Positions 11,756 through 43,536 of a DNA stretch of 64,000 nt are shown here, piece by piece. Location of the stretch: the NCBI RefSeq assembly GCF_003018255.1, contig NZ_CP027440.1, one strand, 5' to 3'. Numbering within the stretch: position 1 is the stretch's first letter; every line of letters starts with the position of its first letter. Below the pieces are notes generated by a model. It did no database searches and had not been told where the DNA came from. It saw only the letters and a program-made list of their open reading frames with translations. This DNA comes from Escherichia coli. GTDB lineage: Bacteria > Pseudomonadota > Gammaproteobacteria > Enterobacterales > Enterobacteriaceae. Both the position numbers and the translations under genes were made by a program.

Positions 11756-11938
11756 TATTACTCCGGAAAATGGAAGCGACGATTTTGGGTGACTGGCAGT
11801 TAAAAATTTTACCTGCATTTAGCCAACTTAAATTAATGAAAAAATGTTATTAATCGTTGAGCTAAAGTCATTAGAGATGCTTTGCCCTTAATGTAACCAT
11901 ATCGCAATAAGTTATGTTTTTAAATTGAGGGCATTATT

Positions 11939-14658: not shown

Positions 14659-16943
14659 GTGCGCAGATATCTGGAGCATTTGATGATCAAGTTATCTGAA
14701 AAAGGCGTGTTTCTCGCCAGCAATAACGAAATAATTGCCGAAGAACATTTCACCGGCGAAATAAAAAAAGAAGAAGCAAAAAAAGGCACTATTGCCTGGT
14801 CTATTCTCTCTTCTCATAATACGTCCGGAAATATGGATAAACTTAAAATTAAGTTTGATTCATTAGCCTCTCACGATATTACCTTTGTTGGTATTGTACA
14901 GACCGCTAAAGCGTCCAGTATGGAACGTTTCCCGCTGCCGTATGTGCTGACCAACTGCCATAACTCACTCTGTGCTGTGGGCGGCACCATTAACGGTGAT
15001 GACCATGTTTTTGGTTTATCGGCGGCCCAGCGTTATGGCGGTATTTTTGTGCCACCGCATATTGCGGTCATCCATCAATATATGCGTGAAATGATGGCGG
15101 CGGCGGCAAAATGATCCTCGGGTCAGACAGCCATACCCGTTACGGTGCGTTAGGGACAATGGCGGTTGGCGAGGGCGGCGGCGAGTTGGTAAAACAGCTG
15201 CTTAATGACACCTGGGATATCGACTATCCGGGCGTGGTTGCGGTGCATCTGACCGGAAAACCTGCGCCGTATGTGGGGCCGCAGGATGTGGCGCTGGCTA
15301 TCATCGGTGCCGTGTTCAAAAACGGTTACGTCAAAAACAAAGTGATGGAGTTCGTAGGTCCCGGTGTTGCAGCGCTCTCTACCGATTTCCGTAACAGCGT
15401 TGACGTGATGACCACTGAAACGACCTGTTTAAGTTCTGTCTGGCAAACCGATGAAGAAGTCCATAACTGGCTGGCGCTGCACGGTCGCGGCCAGGATTAC
15501 TGCCAACTTAACCCTCAACCAATGGCGTACTACGATGGCTGCATCAGCGTTGATTTAAGCGCCATCAAACCAATGATTGCGCTGCCATTCCACCCGAGCA
15601 ACGTGTATGAAATCGACACGCTGAACCAGAACCTGACCGACATTCTGCGTGAGATTGAAATTGAGTCCGAACGCGTGGCGCACGGTAAAGCCAAACTCTC
15701 GCTGCTGGATAAAGTGGAAAATGGTCGCCTGAAAGTGCAGCAGGGGATTATCGCGGGCTGTTCTGGCGGTAACTACGAAAACGTCATCGCGGCGGCGAAT
15801 GCGCTGCGCGGTCAATCCTGCGGCAACGATACCTTCTCATTGGCGGTTTACCCGTCATCACAGCCGGTGTTTATGGATCTCGCCAAAAAAGGTGTGGTAG
15901 CAGATTTGATTGGCGCAGGCGCAATCATCAGAACCGCGTTCTGCGGCCCATGCTTTGGTGCGGGCGATACGCCAATCAACAACGGTTTGAGTATTCGCCA
16001 CACCACGCGTAACTTCCCGAACCGCGAAGGCTCTAAGCCAGCTAATGGGCAGATGTCAGCGGTGGCGTTGATGGACGCTCGTTCTATCGCTGCAACTGCG
16101 GCAAACGGTGGCTATTTAACCTCTGCCAGCGAACTCGATTGCTGGGACAACGTGCCGGAGTACGCCTTCGATGTAACGCCGTATAAAAATCGCGTCTATC
16201 AAGGCTTTGTGAAAGGGGCGACCCAGCAACCGCTGATCTACGGACCGAACATCAAAGACTGGCCGGAATTGGGCGCGCTGACTGACAATATCGTCCTCAA
16301 AGTGTGCTCGAAGATCCTCGACGAAGTCACCACCACCGACGAACTGATTCCTTCCGGTGAAACCTCTTCTTATCGTTCAAATCCGATTGGTCTGGCGGAG
16401 TTTACCCTGTCACGCCGCGATCCCGGTTATGTTGGCAGAAGTAAAGCGACTGCTGAGCTGGAAAATCAGCGTCTGGCGGGGAATGTCAGCGAGCTGACAG
16501 AGGTGTTTGCGCGCATTAAGCAGATTGCTGGTCAGGAGCATATTGATCCGCTGCAAACTGAAATTGGCAGCATGGTCTATGCGGTGAAACCAGGCGATGG
16601 TTCTGCGCGTGAGCAGGCGGCGAGCTGCCAGCGTGTGATTGGCGGTCTGGCGAATATTGCCGAGGAATACGCGACTAAACGCTACCGTTCTAACGTCATC
16701 AACTGGGGGATGTTACCGCTGCAAATGGCGGAAGCACCAACGTTTGAAGTGGGGGATTACATTTACATCCCTGGCATTAAAGCGGCGCTGGATAATCCTG
16801 GAACGACGTTTAAAGGTTATGTGATCCATGAAGATGCACCGGTAACGGAGATTACGCTCTATATGGAAAGTCTGACTGCTGAAGAGCGCGAGATTATCAA
16901 GGCGGGTAGTTTGATTAACTTCAATAAAAACCGTCAGATGTAA
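14659..16943 (+). pseudogene. ybhJ: aconitase-family putative hydratase YbhJ, apparently interrupted by a frameshift
   Basis: Two ORF pieces in different frames: 14659..15114 (151 aa, ending [10 protein letters not shown]) and 15111..16943 (610 aa, [15 protein letters not shown] with aconitase DSHT motif). The downstream frame is open only from 15090, so the break lies in the gcggcggcggc tract at 15090..15112. Confidence 0.75.
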
Positions 16944-18367: not shown

Positions 18368-18518
18368 AGGTTGCTCCGGGCTATGAAATAGAAAAATGAA
18401 TCCGTTGAGGCCTGCTTTTTTATACTAACTTTAGCGAAACGGGAAGGTAAAAAGACAAAAAGTTGTTTTTAATACCTTTAAGTGATACCAGATGGCTTTG
18501 CGCCATCTGGCAGAGTAA

Positions 18519-19053: not shown

Positions 19054-20343
19054 TTATTGGCAAAAAAATGTTTCATCCTGCACCGCACGGTTAACCGCTA
19101 CGGTCAGACGCTGCAACTGTTGCGGGAGAATAATATAGGGCGGCATCAGGTAAATCAGTTTGCCAAAAGGCCGGATCCAGACACCCTGTTCGACAAAGAA
19201 TTTTTGCAGCGCTGCCATATTCACCGGACGAGTGGTTTCGACCACGCCGATTGCCCCCAGTACGCGCACATCGGCAACCATTTCGGCGTCACAGGCGGGG
19301 GCAAGTTGCTCGCGTAGCTGCCCTTCAATAGCCGCCACCTGATGCTGCCAGTCGCCAGATTCGAGAATCGCCAGGCTGGCGTTTGCTGCTGCGCAGGCCA
19401 GCGGATTGCCCATAAAAGTTGGCCCATGCATAAAGCAGCCGGCTTCGCCGTTACTGATGGTTTCCGCAACCTCGCGCGTGGTGAGCGTGGCGGAAAGGGT
19501 CATTGTGCCGCCGGTTAAGGCTTTACCGAGACACAAAATATCCGGCGCGATATCTGCATGTTCACAGGCAAACAGTTTGCCGGTACGACCAAATCCGGTG
19601 GCGATCTCGTCAGCAATCAGCAAGATACCTTCGCGATCGCACATTTTGCGGATTCGTTTTAACCATTCCGGATGGTAGATGCGCATCCCGCCTGCGCCCT
19701 GGACAATCGGTTCAATGATCACGGCGGCGATTTCATGACGATGTGCCGCCATCAGGCGGGCAAAGCCCACCATATCGCGTTCATCCCATTCACCATCCAT
19801 GCGGCTTTGCGGGGCGGGAGCAAACAAGTTTTCTGGCAGATAGCCTTTCCACAGGCTGTGCATTGAGTTGTCCGGATCGCACACAGACATCGCGCCAAAG
19901 GTATCGCCATGATAACCATTGCGGAAGGTCAGAAAACGCTGGCGCGCTTCGCCTTTGGCCTGCCAGTACTGCAACGCCATTTTCATCGCCACTTCCACCG
20001 CTACGGAACCGGAGTCCGCGAGAAAAACGCATTCCAGCGGTTGCGGCGTCATCGCCACCAGTTTGCGGCACAGCTCAATGGCTGGCGCATGAGTGATACC
20101 ACCAAACATCACATGCGACATGGCATCAATTTGCGTCTTCATCGCCGCATTAAGCTGCGGGTGATTGTAGCCGTGGATCGCCGCCCACCAGGACGACATA
20201 CCGTCAACCAGGCGTCTGCCGTCAGACAAAATTAGCTCGCAACCTTCGGCGCTCGCCACCGGATAAACCGGTAGCGGGGAGGTCATGGATGTGTATGGGT
20301 GCCAGATATGGCGTTGGTCAAAGGCAAGATCGTCCGTTGTCAT
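19054..20343 (-). CDS. bioA: adenosylmethionine-8-amino-7-oxononanoate aminotransferase
   Basis: ORF trimmed to [20 protein letters not shown] (429 aa); class-III aminotransferase; divergent from bioB across the bio operator. Confidence 0.95.
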
Positions 20344-20348
20344 AATCG

Positions 20349-20390
20349 ACTTGTAAACCAAATTGAAAAGATTTAGGTTTACGAGTCTAC
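20349..20390. promoter_or_regulatory. bio operator (BirA site) within the divergent bioA/bioBFCD promoters
   Basis: cttgtaaaccaaattgaaaagatttaggtttacgagtctac, the imperfect palindrome TTGTAAACC...GGTTTAC, sits between the divergent starts. Confidence 0.8.
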
Positions 20391-20429
20391 ACCGAATTAA
20401 CAACAAAAAACACGTTTTGGAGAAGCCCC

Positions 20430-21470
20430 ATGGCTCACCGCCCACGCTGGACATTGTCGCAAGTCACAGAATTATTTGAAAAACCGTTGCTGGATCTGCT
20501 GTTTGAAGCGCAGCAGGTGCATCGTCAGCATTTCGATCCACGTCAGGTGCAGGTCAGCACTTTGCTGTCAATTAAGACCGGAGCTTGTCCGGAAGATTGC
20601 AAATACTGCCCGCAAAGCTCGCGCTACAAAACCGGGCTGGAAGCCGAGCGGTTGATGGAAGTTGAACAGGTGCTGGCGTCGGCGCGCAAAGCGAAAGCGG
20701 CAGGATCGACGCGCTTCTGCATGGGCGCGGCGTGGAAGAATCCCCACGAACGCGATATGCCCTACCTGGAACAAATGGTGCAGGGAGTAAAAGCGATGGG
20801 GCTGGAGGCGTGTATGACGCTGGGTACGTTGAGTGAATCTCAGGCGCAGCGCCTTGCGAATGCCGGGCTGGATTACTACAACCATAACCTCGACACCTCG
20901 CCGGAGTTTTACGGCAATATCATCACCACACGTACTTATCAGGAACGCCTTGATACGCTGGAAAAAGTGCGCGATGCCGGGATCAAAGTCTGCTCAGGTG
21001 GCATTGTGGGTTTAGGCGAAACGGTAAAAGATCGTGCCGGATTATTACTGCAACTGGCAAACCTGCCGACGCCGCCGGAAAGCGTGCCAATCAACATGCT
21101 CGTGAAGGTGAAAGGTACTCCACTGGCAGATAACGATGATGTCGATGCCTTTGATTTTATTCGCACCATTGCCGTAGCGCGGATCATGATGCCGACCTCA
21201 TACGTGCGCCTTTCTGCCGGACGCGAGCAGATGAATGAACAGACTCAGGCGATGTGCTTTATGGCCGGGGCTAACTCGATTTTCTACGGTTGCAAACTGC
21301 TAACCACGCCGAATCCGGAAGAAGATAAAGACCTGCAACTGTTCCGCAAACTGGGGCTAAATCCACAGCAAACTGCCGTGCTGGCAGGGGATAACGAACA
21401 ACAGCAGCGTCTGGAGCAGGCACTGATGACCCCGGACACTGACGAATATTACAACGCGGCAGCACTATGA
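20430..21470 (+). CDS. bioB: biotin synthase (radical SAM)
   Basis: 346-aa [38 protein letters not shown] with CxxxCxxC (CPEDCKYC) cluster motif. Confidence 0.96.
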
Positions 21471-22621
21471 GCTGGCAGGAGAAAATCAACGCGGCGCTCG
21501 ATGCGCGGCGTGCTGCCGATGCCCTGCGTCGCCGTTATCCGGTGGCGCAAGGGGCCGGACGCTGGCTGGTGGCGGACGATCGCCAGTATCTGAACTTTTC
21601 CAGTAACGATTATTTAGGTTTAAGCCATCATCCGCAAATTATCCGTGCCTGGAAGCAGAGTGCGGAGCAATTTGGCGTCGGTAGCGGCGGCTCCGGTCAC
21701 GTCAGCGGTTATAGCGTGGCACATCAGGCGCTGGAAGAAGAACTGGCCGAGTGGCTGGGCTATTCGCGGGCGCTGCTGTTTATCTCCGGTTTTGCGGCTA
21801 ATCAGGCAGTCATTGCCGCGATGATGGCGAAAGAGGACCGTATTGTTGCCGACCGGCTTAGCCATGCCTCATTGCTGGAGGCTGCAAGTTTAAGCCCGTC
21901 GCCGCTTCGCCGTTTTGCTCATAACGATGTCACTCATCTGGCGCGACTGCTTGCTTCCCCCTGTCCGGGGCAGCAACTGGTAGTGACAGAAGGTGTGTTC
22001 AGCATGGACGGCGATAGTGCGCCACTGGAGGAAATCCAGCAGGTAACGCAACAGCACGATGGCTGGTTGATGGTCGATGACGCCCACGGCACGGGCGTTA
22101 TCGGGGAGCAGGGGCGCGGCAGCTGCTGGCTGCAAAAGGTAAAACCAGAATTGCTGGTGGTGACTTTTGGCAAAGGATTTGGCGTCAGCGGGGCAGCGGT
22201 GCTTTGCTCCGATACGGTGGCGGATTATCTGGTGCAATTTGCCCGCCATCTTATTTACAGCACCAGTATGCCGCCCGCTCAGGCGCAGGCATTACGTGCA
22301 TCGCTGGCGGTCATTCGCAGTGATGAGGGTGATACACGGCGCGAAAAACTGGCGGCACTCATTACGCGTTTTCGTGCCGGAGTACAGGATTTGCCGTTTA
22401 CGCTTGCTGATTCATGCAGCGCCATCCAGCCATTGATTGTTGGTGATAACAGCCGTGCGTTACAACTGGCAGAAAAACTGCGCCAGCAAGGCTGCTGGGT
22501 CACGGCGATTCGCCCGCCAACCGTACCTGCTGGTACTGCGCGACTGCGCTTAACACTAACAGCCGCGCATGAAATGCAGGATATCGACCGTCTGCTGGAG
22601 GTGCTGCATGGCAACGGTTAA
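21467..22621 (+). CDS. bioF: 8-amino-7-oxononanoate synthase
   Basis: 384-aa [28 protein letters not shown]; overlaps the bioB stop. Confidence 0.95.
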
Positions 22622-23363
22622 TAAACAAGCCATTGCAGCGGCATTTGGACGGGCAGCCGCACACTATGAGCAACACGCCGATCTACAGCGCCAGAGTGCT
22701 GACGCCTTACTGGCAATGCTCCCACAGCGTAAATACACCCACGTACTGGATGCGGGTTGTGGACCAGGCTGGATGAGCCGCCGCTGGCGAGAGCGTCACG
22801 CGCAGGTGACTGCGTTAGATCTCTCTCCGCCAATGCTTGTTCAGGCACGCCAGAAGGATGCCGCAGACCATTATCTGGCGGGAGATATCGAATCCCTGCC
22901 GTTAGCGACTGCAACGTTCGATCTTGCATGGAGCAATCTCGCGGTGCAGTGGTGCGGTAATTTATCCATGGCACTCCGCGAGCTGTATCGGGTGGTGCGC
23001 CCCGGAGGCGTGGTCGCGTTTACCACGCTGGTGCAGGGATCGTTACCCGAACTGCATCAGGCGTGGCAGGCGGTGGACGAGCGCCCGCATGCTAATCGCT
23101 TTTTACCGCCAGATAAAATCGAACAGTCGCTAAACGCCGTGCATTATCAACATTATATTCAGCCCATTACGCTGTGGTTTGATGATGCGCTCAGTGCCAT
23201 GCGTTCGCTGAAAGGCATCGGTGCCACGCATCTTCATGAAGGGCGCGACCCGCGAATATTAACGCGTTCGCAGTTGCAGCGATTGCAACTAGCCTGGCCG
23301 CAACAACAGGGGCGATATCCTCTGACGTATCATCTTTTTTTGGGAGTGATTGCTCGTGAGTAA
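22608..23363 (+). CDS. bioC: malonyl-ACP O-methyltransferase
   Basis: ORF trimmed to [27 protein letters not shown] (251 aa) with SAM-binding LDAGCGPG; overlaps the bioF 3' end. Confidence 0.92.
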
Positions 23364-24033
23364 ATGTTATTTTGTCACCGGAACGGATACCGAAGTGGGG
23401 AAAACTGTCGCCAGCTGCGCGCTTTTACAAGCCGCAAAGGCAGCAGGCTACCGGACGGCAGGTTATAAACCGGTGGCCTCTGGCAGCGAAAAGACCCCGA
23501 AAGGCTTACGTAATAGTGACGCGCTGGCGTTACAGCGCAACAGTAGCCTGCAGCTGGATTACGCAACGGTAAATCCTTACACCTTCGCAGAACCCACCTC
23601 GCCGCATATCATCAGCGCGCAAGAGGGCAGGCCGATAGAATCATTGGTAATGAGCGCCGGATTACGCGCGCTTGAACAACAGGCTGACTGGGTGTTAGTG
23701 GAAGGTGCTGGCGGCTGGTTTACGCCGCTTTCTGACACTTTCACTTTTGCGGATTGGGTAACACAGGAACAACTGCCGGTGATACTGGTAGTTGGTGTGA
23801 AACTCGGCTGTATTAATCACGCGATGTTGACTGCGCAGGCAATACTACACGCCGGACTGACTCTGGCGGGGTGGGTGGCGAACGATGTCACGCCTCCGGG
23901 AAAACGTCACGCTGAATATATGACCACGCTCACCCGCATGATTCCCGCGCCGCTGCTGGGCGAAATTCCCTGGCTTGCAGAAAATCCAGAAAATGCGGCA
24001 ACCGGAAAGTACATCAATCTTGCCTTAATGTAG
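23356..24033 (+). CDS. bioD: dethiobiotin synthetase
   Basis: GTG-initiated (M)[19 protein letters not shown] with P-loop, 225 aa; the ORF track opens 6 nt upstream at a TTG. Confidence 0.9.
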
Positions 24034-24040
24034 TCATCCT

Positions 24041-24098
24041 GTAATTGGTTAAATTGCGAGCGAGATCGTGTCTCCGATTGACTGCAATTTAACCAATT
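24041..24098. repeat. long inverted repeat (15-16 bp arms, 26-nt spacer) just downstream of bioD
   Basis: gtaattggttaaattgc ... gcaatttaaccaattaa; no U-tract on either strand, so not a canonical intrinsic terminator. Confidence 0.7.
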
Positions 24099-24192
24099 AA
24101 ATTCTAAAAAAATCACGAAAAAAATTTTACCTCCGCATCATGCGGTGAATGTGGGAATTGCCCAGGCGGCGGGGGATAGGGGCTGCAGACAG

Positions 24193-24215
24193 TTATCCAC
24201 TATTCCTGTGGATAA
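24193..24215. promoter_or_regulatory. inverted pair of DnaA-box-like 9-mers upstream of uvrB
   Basis: ttatccact and tgtggataa (consensus TTATNCACA) in opposite orientation. Confidence 0.55.
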
Positions 24216-24519
24216 CCATGTGTATTAGAGTTAGAAAACACGAGGCAAGCGAGAGAATACGCGGCTTGCACGCGAATTGGCGTTAAAGACGGCTCAAAGA
24301 AATATCTTTTATTTTTTAACAGGTTAGATAATTGCAATGGCAGTCACTGAACAGGCATCTCTTGCCATAAAACTGTCATCAATCATCTTGACAAATGTTA
24401 AAAAAGCCGTTGCTTTGGGGATAACCCGGTAAGGCCGGAGTTTTATCTCGCCGCAGAGTAAATTTTGCTCATGATTGACAGCGGAGTTTACGCTGTAACA
24501 GAAATATTATGGTGATGAA

Positions 24520-24535
24520 CTGTTTTTTTATCCAG
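24520..24535. promoter_or_regulatory. LexA (SOS) box of the uvrB promoter
   Basis: ctgtttttttatccag fits CTGT-N8-ACAG, about 80 bp upstream of the uvrB ATG and overlapping a tataat-like -10. Confidence 0.75.
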
Positions 24536-24611
24536 TATAATTTGTTGGCATAATTAAGTACGACGAGTAAAATTACATACCTGCCCGCCCAACTCCTTCA
24601 GGTAGCGACTC

Positions 24612-26633
24612 ATGAGTAAACCGTTCAAACTGAATTCCGCTTTTAAACCTTCTGGCGATCAGCCGGAGGCGATTCGACGTCTCGAAGAGGGGCTGGAAGA
24701 TGGCCTGGCGCACCAGACGTTACTTGGCGTGACTGGCTCCGGGAAAACCTTCACCATTGCCAATGTCATTGCTGACCTTCAGCGCCCAACCATGGTACTT
24801 GCGCCCAACAAAACGCTGGCGGCCCAGCTGTATGGCGAAATGAAAGAATTCTTCCCGGAAAACGCGGTGGAATATTTCGTCTCCTACTACGACTACTATC
24901 AGCCGGAGGCCTATGTACCGAGTTCCGACACCTTCATTGAGAAAGATGCCTCGGTAAACGAACATATCGAACAGATGCGTTTGTCCGCCACCAAAGCGAT
25001 GCTGGAGCGGCGTGATGTGGTTGTGGTGGCGTCTGTTTCCGCGATTTATGGTCTGGGCGATCCTGATTTATATCTCAAGATGATGCTCCATCTCACGGTC
25101 GGTATGATTATCGATCAGCGCGCGATCCTGCGCCGACTGGCGGAGCTGCAATATGCTCGTAATGATCAAGCCTTCCAGCGTGGTACTTTCCGTGTTCGTG
25201 GCGAGGTGATTGATATCTTCCCGGCAGAATCGGATGACATTGCACTTCGCGTGGAGCTGTTTGACGAGGAAGTGGAACGATTGTCGTTATTTGACCCGCT
25301 GACCGGGCAGATTGTTTCCACTATTCCACGTTTTACCATCTACCCGAAAACGCACTACGTCACGCCACGCGAGCGCATCGTCCAGGCGATGGAGGAGATC
25401 AAAGAAGAGCTGGCCGCCAGACGTAAAGTGCTATTGGAAAACAACAAACTGCTGGAAGAGCAGCGGCTGACCCAGCGTACCCAGTTTGATCTGGAGATGA
25501 TGAACGAGCTAGGCTACTGTTCGGGGATTGAGAACTACTCGCGCTTCCTCTCCGGTCGTGGACCGGGTGAGCCACCGCCGACGCTGTTTGATTACCTGCC
25601 TGCTGATGGGCTGCTGGTGGTCGATGAATCTCACGTCACCATTCCACAAATTGGCGGCATGTATCGCGGTGACCGGGCGCGTAAAGAGACACTGGTGGAG
25701 TACGGCTTCCGCCTGCCATCAGCGCTGGATAACCGTCCGCTGAAATTTGAAGAGTTCGAAGCATTAGCGCCGCAAACCATCTATGTTTCGGCGACGCCGG
25801 GTAATTACGAGCTGGAAAAATCCGGTGGCGATGTGGTGGATCAGGTGGTGCGTCCAACAGGCTTACTCGACCCGATTATCGAAGTGCGGCCAGTGGCAAC
25901 ACAGGTGGATGATCTTCTTTCGGAGATTCGTCAGCGAGCGGCAATTAACGAACGCGTACTGGTTACAACTCTGACCAAGCGGATGGCGGAAGATCTCACT
26001 GAATATCTCGAAGAACACGGTGAGCGCGTGCGTTATCTTCACTCAGATATCGACACCGTCGAACGTATGGAGATTATCCGCGACTTGCGTCTGGGTGAGT
26101 TCGACGTATTGGTAGGGATCAACTTACTGCGCGAAGGTCTGGATATGCCGGAAGTTTCGCTGGTGGCGATCCTCGACGCTGACAAAGAAGGCTTCCTGCG
26201 TTCCGAACGTTCGTTGATCCAGACCATTGGTCGTGCGGCACGTAACGTTAACGGTAAAGCGATTCTCTACGGCGATAAGATCACCCCATCAATGGCGAAA
26301 GCGATTGGCGAAACCGAACGTCGCCGCGAGAAACAGCAGAAGTACAACGAGGAACACGGCATTACGCCGCAAGGCTTGAACAAGAAAGTGGTCGATATCC
26401 TGGCGCTGGGGCAGAACATTGCCAAAACCAAAGCGAAGGGCAGAGGAAAATCGCGACCGATTGTTGAGCCGGATAATGTGCCGATGGATATGTCGCCTAA
26501 AGCGTTGCAGCAGAAAATCCATGAACTGGAAGGGTTGATGATGCAACACGCGCAGAATCTGGAGTTCGAAGAAGCGGCACAAATTCGTGACCAGTTGCAT
26601 CAGCTGCGTGAGTTGTTCATTGCGGCTTCGTGA
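24612..26633 (+). CDS. uvrB: excinuclease ABC subunit B
   Basis: 673-aa [30 protein letters not shown] with Walker A GVTGSGKT and helicase motifs. Confidence 0.97.
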
Positions 26634-26670
26634 CAGGATAACGAAGAAGACAGATGACAAAAGCAAAATT

Positions 26671-26770
26671 GCCTGATGTGCTACGCTTATCAGGCCTACA
26701 TGATCTCTGCAATACATTGAATTAGCGCGGTTTGTAGGCCGGATAAGGCTTTCACGCCGCATCCGGCATA
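26671..26770. repeat. REP/BIME cluster
   Basis: gcctgatgtgctacgcttatcaggcctac and gtaggccggataaggctttcacgccgcatccggca between convergent uvrB and ybhK. Confidence 0.85.
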
Positions 26771-26824
26771 AACAACGCGCACTTTGTCTTCAATAGGAAG
26801 CCGGAATTTTCCTTCGGCTTTCCG

Positions 26825-27793
<969 letters not shown>

Positions 27794-31879: not shown

Positions 31880-32269
31880 ATGGAATCATACTCGCAAAGC
31901 AGCAATAAATTAGATTTTCAGCACGAAGCCAGGATATTAAACGGCATATGGCTCATTACCGCTTTGGGTTTGGTGACAACCGCAGGACTGGCCCTGGTGA
32001 TCATCAGGAATGCCGCATTAATGAGTGAACGGCCCATTTGGGTAATAAGTTGCTTAATGATTGTTTTATGGTCAGGCATTATCTCGCATGGACGAAATAA
32101 GCTCCTTGAACTGGCAGGAAAATGCCATAGCGAAGAGTTGTGGAGTCCGGTTAGTTGCGCTTTTACAGGTGCATTAACACTCTATTACTATTTTATCGGC
32201 TTCTTTGGGATACTTGCCGCGATAGCTATAACGCTTGTCTGGCAAAGGCATACGCGGTTTTTTCATTAG
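31880..32269 (+). CDS. ybhM: small inner membrane protein, YbhM-like, shorter than I recall for K-12
   Basis: 129-aa ORF MESYSQSSNKLDFQHEARILNGIWLITALGLVTTAGLALVII with 3-4 hydrophobic segments, at the ybhM position. Confidence 0.6.
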   Translation: MESYSQSSNKLDFQHEARILNGIWLITALGLVTTAGLALVIIRNAALMSERPIWVISCLMIVLWSGIISHGRNKLLELAGKCHSEELWSPVSCAFTGALTLYYYFIGFFGILAAIAITLVWQRHTRFFH

Positions 32270-43004: not shown

Positions 43005-43150
<146 letters not shown>

Positions 43151-43230
43151 TCACAACAAGCACTTGTCAGCCATTTGCGAGCGCGGCAAAAAGATTTCTC
43201 TGTTTTAACGCCCACAAGCCACCCGATGCG

Positions 43231-43536
43231 TTACTTCTCCGCAGCCAATTGTCCGCGCAACGCCATTAAAAGGTACCCCAGGCGATTCTTGCCCTGACCA
43301 TTACCGCTATCTCCCCAGTAAGCATCATTTTGCGTATGCTCAACCAGTTTTGCGGACGCGGTTGCCAGCAAGAGTGTACGCAGTTCTGCATGTTGTTCGA
43401 ATTTAGCGCGAAGCGCTTTACGCATCATCCTGCTGGTTATTGCGAGCCGCTTTCCAGAAACAGAAAAACCATTACCCCTGAAAACCGAAAAATGCCACAA
43501 TATTGGCTGTTTATACAGTATTTCAGGTTTTCTCAT
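43231..43536 (-). pseudogene. ybiA: YbiA-like (DUF1768 N-glycosidase family) gene, apparently 5'-truncated
   Basis: 101-aa ORF whose C-terminal ~64 aa (MRKALRAKFEQHAELR...NRLGYLLMALRGQLAAEK) match YbiA as I recall it; N-terminal 37 codons run through the dinG promoter and LexA box and abut the dinG ATG. Confidence 0.5.
43501..43520. promoter_or_regulatory. non-canonical LexA box of dinG
   Basis: tattggctgtttatacagta, with a good right half (ATACAGTA) and degenerate left half, about 15 bp upstream of the dinG ATG. Confidence 0.65.

Follow-up and report, generated by a model that had tools for sequence, protein, structure and literature searches.

A common, intact non-K-12 bioD allele in an Escherichia coli lineage close to JNE23-011

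The bioD gene in this 64-kb stretch of Escherichia coli DNA (hereafter, the window) encodes a protein that departs at several sites from its K-12 counterpart, which raises the question of what these departures say about the lineage of the strain and whether they matter to the enzyme. The original prediction had listed several substitutions relative to the K-12 protein, an opening (M)SKCYF in place of MSKRYF and a terminal M, and had suggested that, taken with lesions in ybhJ, ybhM and ybiA, they place the window outside the MG1655 lineage. The gene and its changed codons are as follows.

23356..24033, + strand: bioD, dethiobiotin synthase; intact 225-codon ORF with GTG start and TAG stop
23365..23367, + strand: bioD codon 4, CGT>TGT, R4C (R3C in PDB numbering)
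23500..23502, + strand: bioD codon 49, GAA>AAA, E49K
23839..23847, + strand: bioD codons 162–164, GTA>GCA V162A (23840) and CAA>CTA Q164L (23846)
24028..24030, + strand: bioD codon 225, TTG>ATG, C-terminal L225M

Base-by-base comparison with the MG1655 gene (NC_000913.3, 812270–812947) revealed 27 differences in 678 bases and no gaps (96.0% identity), comprising 22 synonymous and five nonsynonymous changes (R4C, E49K, V162A, Q164L and L225M). The window protein reads (M)SKCYF...EKTPKG...AQAILHAG...LALM. The K-12 protein given in the original prediction proved accurate against the MG1655 record, and the sites it named are these five, the altered opening corresponding to R4C and the terminal M to L225M. 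The coordinates agree with those of the PGAP-annotated bioD in the closest genome, JNE23-011, where the product, as in strain 1105, is annotated as WP_000030925.1.

Departure from K-12 extends well beyond bioD. The window is collinear with MG1655 positions 788,820–853,767 at 96.9–98.5% identity per block, with 1.5–3.1% divergence across the whole 64 kb and five indel breaks, located in the ybhJ–ybhC spacer, ybhM, ybiA, the hcxB–ybiJ spacer and the ybiO–glnQ spacer. Compared gene by gene, 110 amino-acid differences were found in 16,427 comparable codons (0.67%). Neither the near-100% identity nor the identical indel structure of the MG1655 lineage was seen across the window, and the 100% identity that would have contradicted the proposed non-MG1655 origin is absent in every block.

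Other parts of the window gave further observations. Among intact genes, ybhK/yvcK (26825–27733; 94.4% identity, dS 0.25) diverged most from K-12 at the nucleotide level, with only three amino-acid changes (dN/dS 0.017), a pattern that suggests an older or imported haplotype that may be under strong constraint. Two copies of a ~140-nt repeat lie at 26653–26794, downstream of uvrB, and at 43026–43165, downstream of rhlE; they share 82–85% identity with repeats found between genes at several places in MG1655, and a further copy, present in the K-12 ybiO–glnQ spacer, has no counterpart in the window. Judged by where they lie and how they are dispersed, these are putative REP/BIME-type elements. 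At 18414–18428, between ybhC and ybhB, the window retains an intact phage lambda attachment core, GCTTTTTTATACTAA, and therefore no prophage is integrated at this site.

The window was divided into three and, as the original prediction had proposed, its closest lineage was sought by BLASTN among 5426 complete E. coli genomes. Two of these, JNE23-011 (NZ_AP045067.1, human, Japan) and JNE112863, matched far better than all others; those that followed were only 98.3–99.4% identical, and K-12 derivatives sat in an undifferentiated bulk at 97.1%. Together with the per-block identity to MG1655, this supports the view that the window lies outside the MG1655 lineage. In JNE23-011 the whole window is collinear with chromosomal positions 1,415,939–1,479,939 at 99.988% identity, and direct alignment left seven SNPs and a single deleted base as the only differences across the 64 kb; JNE112863 is about equally close. 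A literature search on these two strains returned nothing on either, mentioning only JNE120442, a more distant match from a LEE-negative STEC set.

The seven SNPs relative to JNE23-011 are at window positions 11812, 14917, 18758, 53326, 55098, 59945 and 63610. At six of them JNE23-011 carries the MG1655 base, so the window holds the derived state there. Four of the six coding SNPs are nonsynonymous (ybhJ G79S, ybhB F80L, rlmF G207R and rhtA V129A), and such a pattern is expected of very recent, unpurged mutations. The deletion falls in a GGC run of ybhJ (gene 14683–16943; deletion within 15085–15105, GGCGGGCGGC > GGCGGCGGC) and splits the gene by frameshift into ORFs at 14659–15114 and 15111–16943. 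It is private to the window, the extra G being present in both JNE23-011 and MG1655 and the JNE112863 match spanning the same base; either a genuine mutation of recent date or an error in the consensus may account for it.

The other two lesions are of a different kind. The ybhM remnant (31880–32269) lacks 314 nt relative to K-12 and the ybiA remnant (~43231–43432) lacks 288 nt, and both states are common to JNE23-011, where PGAP calls ybhM a 390-nt 'Bax inhibitor 1 family protein' gene and ybiA a 'NADAR family protein' pseudogene; in strain 1105, too, the place of ybhM is taken by a 390-nt gene. By this comparison, the two truncations are features of the lineage and not private lesions. As signs of lineage, therefore, the ybhM and ybiA lesions stand, while the ybhJ frameshift does not.

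To place this lineage within the species, JNE23-011 was typed in silico for phylogroup markers with the degenerate Clermont primers given in PMC7656184. The arpA gene is absent, aceK and iclR being adjacent and 17 nt apart, with a match to primer AceK_f and none to ArpA1_r. In turn, chuA is present, both as an annotated gene and as a 288 bp in-silico product with both primers matching, and yjaA is absent, with no gene between the 5S rRNA gene and yjaB and neither primer matching that locus. Both degenerate G-type ybgD primers match a ybgD homologue exactly, giving a 177-bp product; strains of phylogroup D may be matched by this primer pair as well, although they carry arpA (PMC7656184). The resulting profile (arpA−, chuA+, yjaA−, ybgD+) is incompatible with phylogroups A, B1, C, D and E and favours G. 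JNE23-011 thus belongs to the B2/F/G side of E. coli, with phylogroup G as its most likely assignment and B2 with an atypical profile as the alternative. TspE4.C2 primers had no match in the 314 kb of JNE23-011 examined, a result that says nothing on the remaining genome.

Among the next-best BLAST matches to the window are APEC O78:H4 strains, which we take to be ST117 and phylogroup G; the link between ST117 and phylogroup G was reportedly drawn by Clermont et al. in 2019. A literature search for the 177-bp ybgD product and for the ST117–phylogroup G link found no supporting paper. A wider listing of BLAST matches showed nearly all remaining genomes, K-12, B, O157/O55, O26 and F11 among them, compressed at 97.0–97.9%, with no phylogroup gradient.

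How widespread the bioD variant is was assessed at the level of the whole allele and of each substitution. The exact 678-base allele is carried by the complete genomes of four strains (1105, DETEC-S792, JNE23-011 and JNE112863), 901 of 5424 complete E. coli genomes have an allele that matches it at 99% identity or more, and the identical protein, WP_000030925.1, is found on at least 1000 public contigs. Individual substitutions were followed with short probes placed so that any possible 28-base megablast seed must include the variant base; matches therefore count carriers of the local haplotype, and the numbers are lower bounds on carriers of the substitution among the 5426 complete genomes. 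The 55-nt, SNP-centred R4C probe matched 1035 genomes and the E49K probe 1125; the 49-nt probe for V162A and Q164L, which needs both changes, matched 1102, and the L225M probe 1317. The local haplotype of each substitution is thus found in 19–24% of the genomes. All four probes match strain SA186 perfectly, an O25b:H4 ST131 isolate (PMC6498225). Because the probes are so widely matched, ST131 strain SA186 included, the five changes represent a standard allele in a large part of the species and not a peculiarity of this strain.

The presence of one allele in distant strains raises the possibility that bioD does not share the history of its surroundings. Strain 1105 differs from the window at only seven positions across 23001–26000 (bioD to uvrB), compared with 20–55 differences per kb in the flanks, and a second stretch of low divergence lies at ~10–16 kb. 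Strain 1105 also has an InsQ/TnpB-family gene between ybhB and bioA that is absent from the window. The pattern of divergence is recombination-like, and the bioD–uvrB tract has probably been exchanged among backgrounds by homologous recombination. Since one allele recurs in backgrounds that otherwise diverge, bioD alone is a weak marker of lineage.

A stronger form of the argument holds that bioD was imported by local homologous recombination, so that its divergence would belong to a mosaic segment and not to the strain's own lineage. The confinement of near-identity with strain 1105 to this tract speaks for it, as do dS values of 0.11–0.25 in the bio–ybhK stretch versus 0.07–0.08 in genes such as modF, fiu and hcxB, and we retain it as a tentative option, somewhat doubtful but not negligible. 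However, it leaves the non-K-12 conclusion untouched, because the whole window, and not bioD only, diverges from K-12. Mosaicism is, moreover, normal in E. coli and compatible with bioD being an ordinary allele of a wild lineage, so that the two are not true alternatives.

BioD is the ATP-dependent dethiobiotin synthetase (EC 6.3.3.3), which closes the ureido ring on 7,8-diaminopelargonate (DAPA) with CO2 and ATP, and the second question is whether the substitutions affect this activity. The reading frame is uninterrupted over 225 codons, with neither an internal stop nor an indel relative to K-12. Against TIGR00347, the NCBIfam equivalog model of dethiobiotin synthase (cutoff 83.3), the protein scored 223 bits, the match covering profile positions 1–166 of 166 and protein residues 6–176, with residues 4 and 225 outside this core. 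Its alignment with the E. coli enzyme of known structure (1a82 and 11 more entries) is gap-free from end to end, with differences at those five residues only. The P-loop GTDTEVGKT (residues 9–17; GxxxxGKT) is unchanged from K-12, and T11, E12, K15, T16, K37, S41, D54, E115 and N175 (mature numbering) are all retained. In the BioD crystal structures these nine residues are catalytic or bind ATP, Mg2+ or substrate; a search of the literature on the active site of the E. coli enzyme brought up nothing but docking papers on M. tuberculosis and unrelated matches. Position 49 is variable in solved homologues, being E in Francisella and D in Mycobacterium, as are positions 162 and 164, both of which are Ala in Mycobacterium. 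Relative to K-12, bioD has a dN/dS of 0.067 (dS 0.147, dN 0.0099; Nei–Gojobori), which falls inside the 0.006–0.14 range of 12 neighbouring genes. The gene is accordingly intact and predicted to be functional, making dethiobiotin from DAPA, CO2 and ATP, and the five substitutions would leave enzyme activity unchanged.

The surrounding operon is arranged as follows.

19054..20343, − strand: bioA, divergently transcribed
20344..20429: bioA–bioB control region with the bio operator palindrome, 85/86 bases identical to K-12
20430–21470, + strand: bioB, in the bioBFCD operon upstream of bioD
21467–22621, + strand: bioF, in the bioBFCD operon upstream of bioD
22608..23363, + strand: bioC, its last 8 bases overlapping the bioD start, as in K-12
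24042–24057 / 24084–24099: perfect inverted repeat with 16-nt arms and a 26-nt spacer, directly after the bioD stop

Within this arrangement bioD is the last gene of bioBFCD, with bioA divergent and the bio operator between bioA and bioB. The bioC/bioD junction differs from K-12 at one of 61 bases, namely the R4C SNP, two bases past the bioC stop. The one change in the control region, A>G at 20383, lies in the right half-site of the operator (GGTTTACAAG > GGTTTACGAG) and leaves the 10-bp symmetry, which is perfect in K-12, broken at one position; its local haplotype occurs in 1949 of 5426 complete genomes, by which count this change in the BirA operator is a common polymorphism. The inverted repeat after bioD is A+T-rich, and a simple terminator scan called no terminator there (24042–24099).

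At the protein level, the bio enzymes form the most amino-acid-divergent block of the window relative to MG1655, with differences at 11/429 residues in BioA, 12/384 in BioF, 6/251 in BioC, 5/225 in BioD and 1/346 in BioB. At 2.2%, BioD divergence is roughly threefold the average of the window (0.67%) and resembles that of BioA, BioF and BioC; since the bio enzymes diverge most as a block, that of bioD is typical of its operon.

This elevated divergence lends some colour to the proposal that the substitutions alter BioD function, by adaptive tuning or partial loss, for example through the new N-terminal cysteine. R4C and E49K change the charge of the protein, the bio operon enzymes lead the window in amino-acid divergence, an operator half-site is also changed, and R4C is chemically non-conservative, a point against the neutral-polymorphism reading. 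Nonetheless, the low dN/dS, the unchanged catalytic and ligand-binding residues and the location of the substituted sites at variable positions or outside the conserved core all argue against an altered function, as does the occurrence of the allele in ~20% of complete genomes from several lineages, which would be unexpected for a defective enzyme of an essential pathway. We consider such a functional effect very unlikely. Similarly improbable is a broader version, by which a B2/F/G-type bio locus would set a level or regulation of biotin synthesis different from that of K-12 as a lineage-specific metabolic adaptation; the candidate differences, to which we would give equally little credence in that role, are the five BioD changes, the 11–12 substitutions carried by each of BioA and BioF, together with A>G in the right half-site of the BirA operator.

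Sequencing or assembly errors, or a wrong version of the K-12 protein, are a vanishingly improbable source of the bioD differences: the private 1-base deletion in ybhJ and six private SNPs do show some low-level error or very recent mutation elsewhere in the window, but none of the eight differences between the window and JNE23-011 falls inside bioD, the K-12 comparison was made on the actual MG1655 record, and bioD is identical base for base to four independently assembled complete genomes. Since the same 678-base allele recurs in those four, error was rejected and the differences are real polymorphisms and not noise.

We therefore return to the reading favoured throughout, that the window carries a common, intact and ordinary non-K-12 bioD allele in a wild lineage close to JNE23-011, which we hold to be very probably correct. 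The allele would be the one typical of the B2/F/G side of E. coli, as opposed to that of K-12 (phylogroup A), and the five changes would be long-standing polymorphisms, neutral or close to neutral, at surface or terminal sites that are not conserved. They would then reflect no more than the origin of the strain in a wild lineage, as close kin of the Japanese human isolates JNE23-011 and JNE112863 and most likely in phylogroup G. Judged from the alignments and allele counts, bioD variation of this kind is routine between-lineage polymorphism under purifying selection, and already known.

The bioD variant thus has no special biological significance, and its value is one of provenance: the proper reference for annotations and apparent 'lesions' elsewhere in the window is a background like that of JNE23-011, probably of phylogroup G, and not K-12. 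Against that background, the ybhJ frameshift and a few SNPs are all that is private to the strain.

Two known versions of the enzyme frame these conclusions. K-12 BioD (BIOD1_ECOLI, b0778; PDB entries including 1a82, 1byi and 1dad) has the same 225 codons and is identical to the window protein at 220 of 225 residues; its gene likewise begins with a GTG overlapping bioC, occupies the equivalent operon position, encodes an identical P-loop and identical catalytic residues, and is followed by the same inverted repeat with one pair fewer. The window differs from it by R4C, E49K, V162A, Q164L and L225M, with 22 synonymous changes in the gene. In contrast, no difference separates the window from WP_000030925.1 of JNE23-011, JNE112863, strain 1105 and DETEC-S792, to which it is identical in both protein and 678-base DNA; with JNE23-011 it also shares the ybhM and ybiA remnants.
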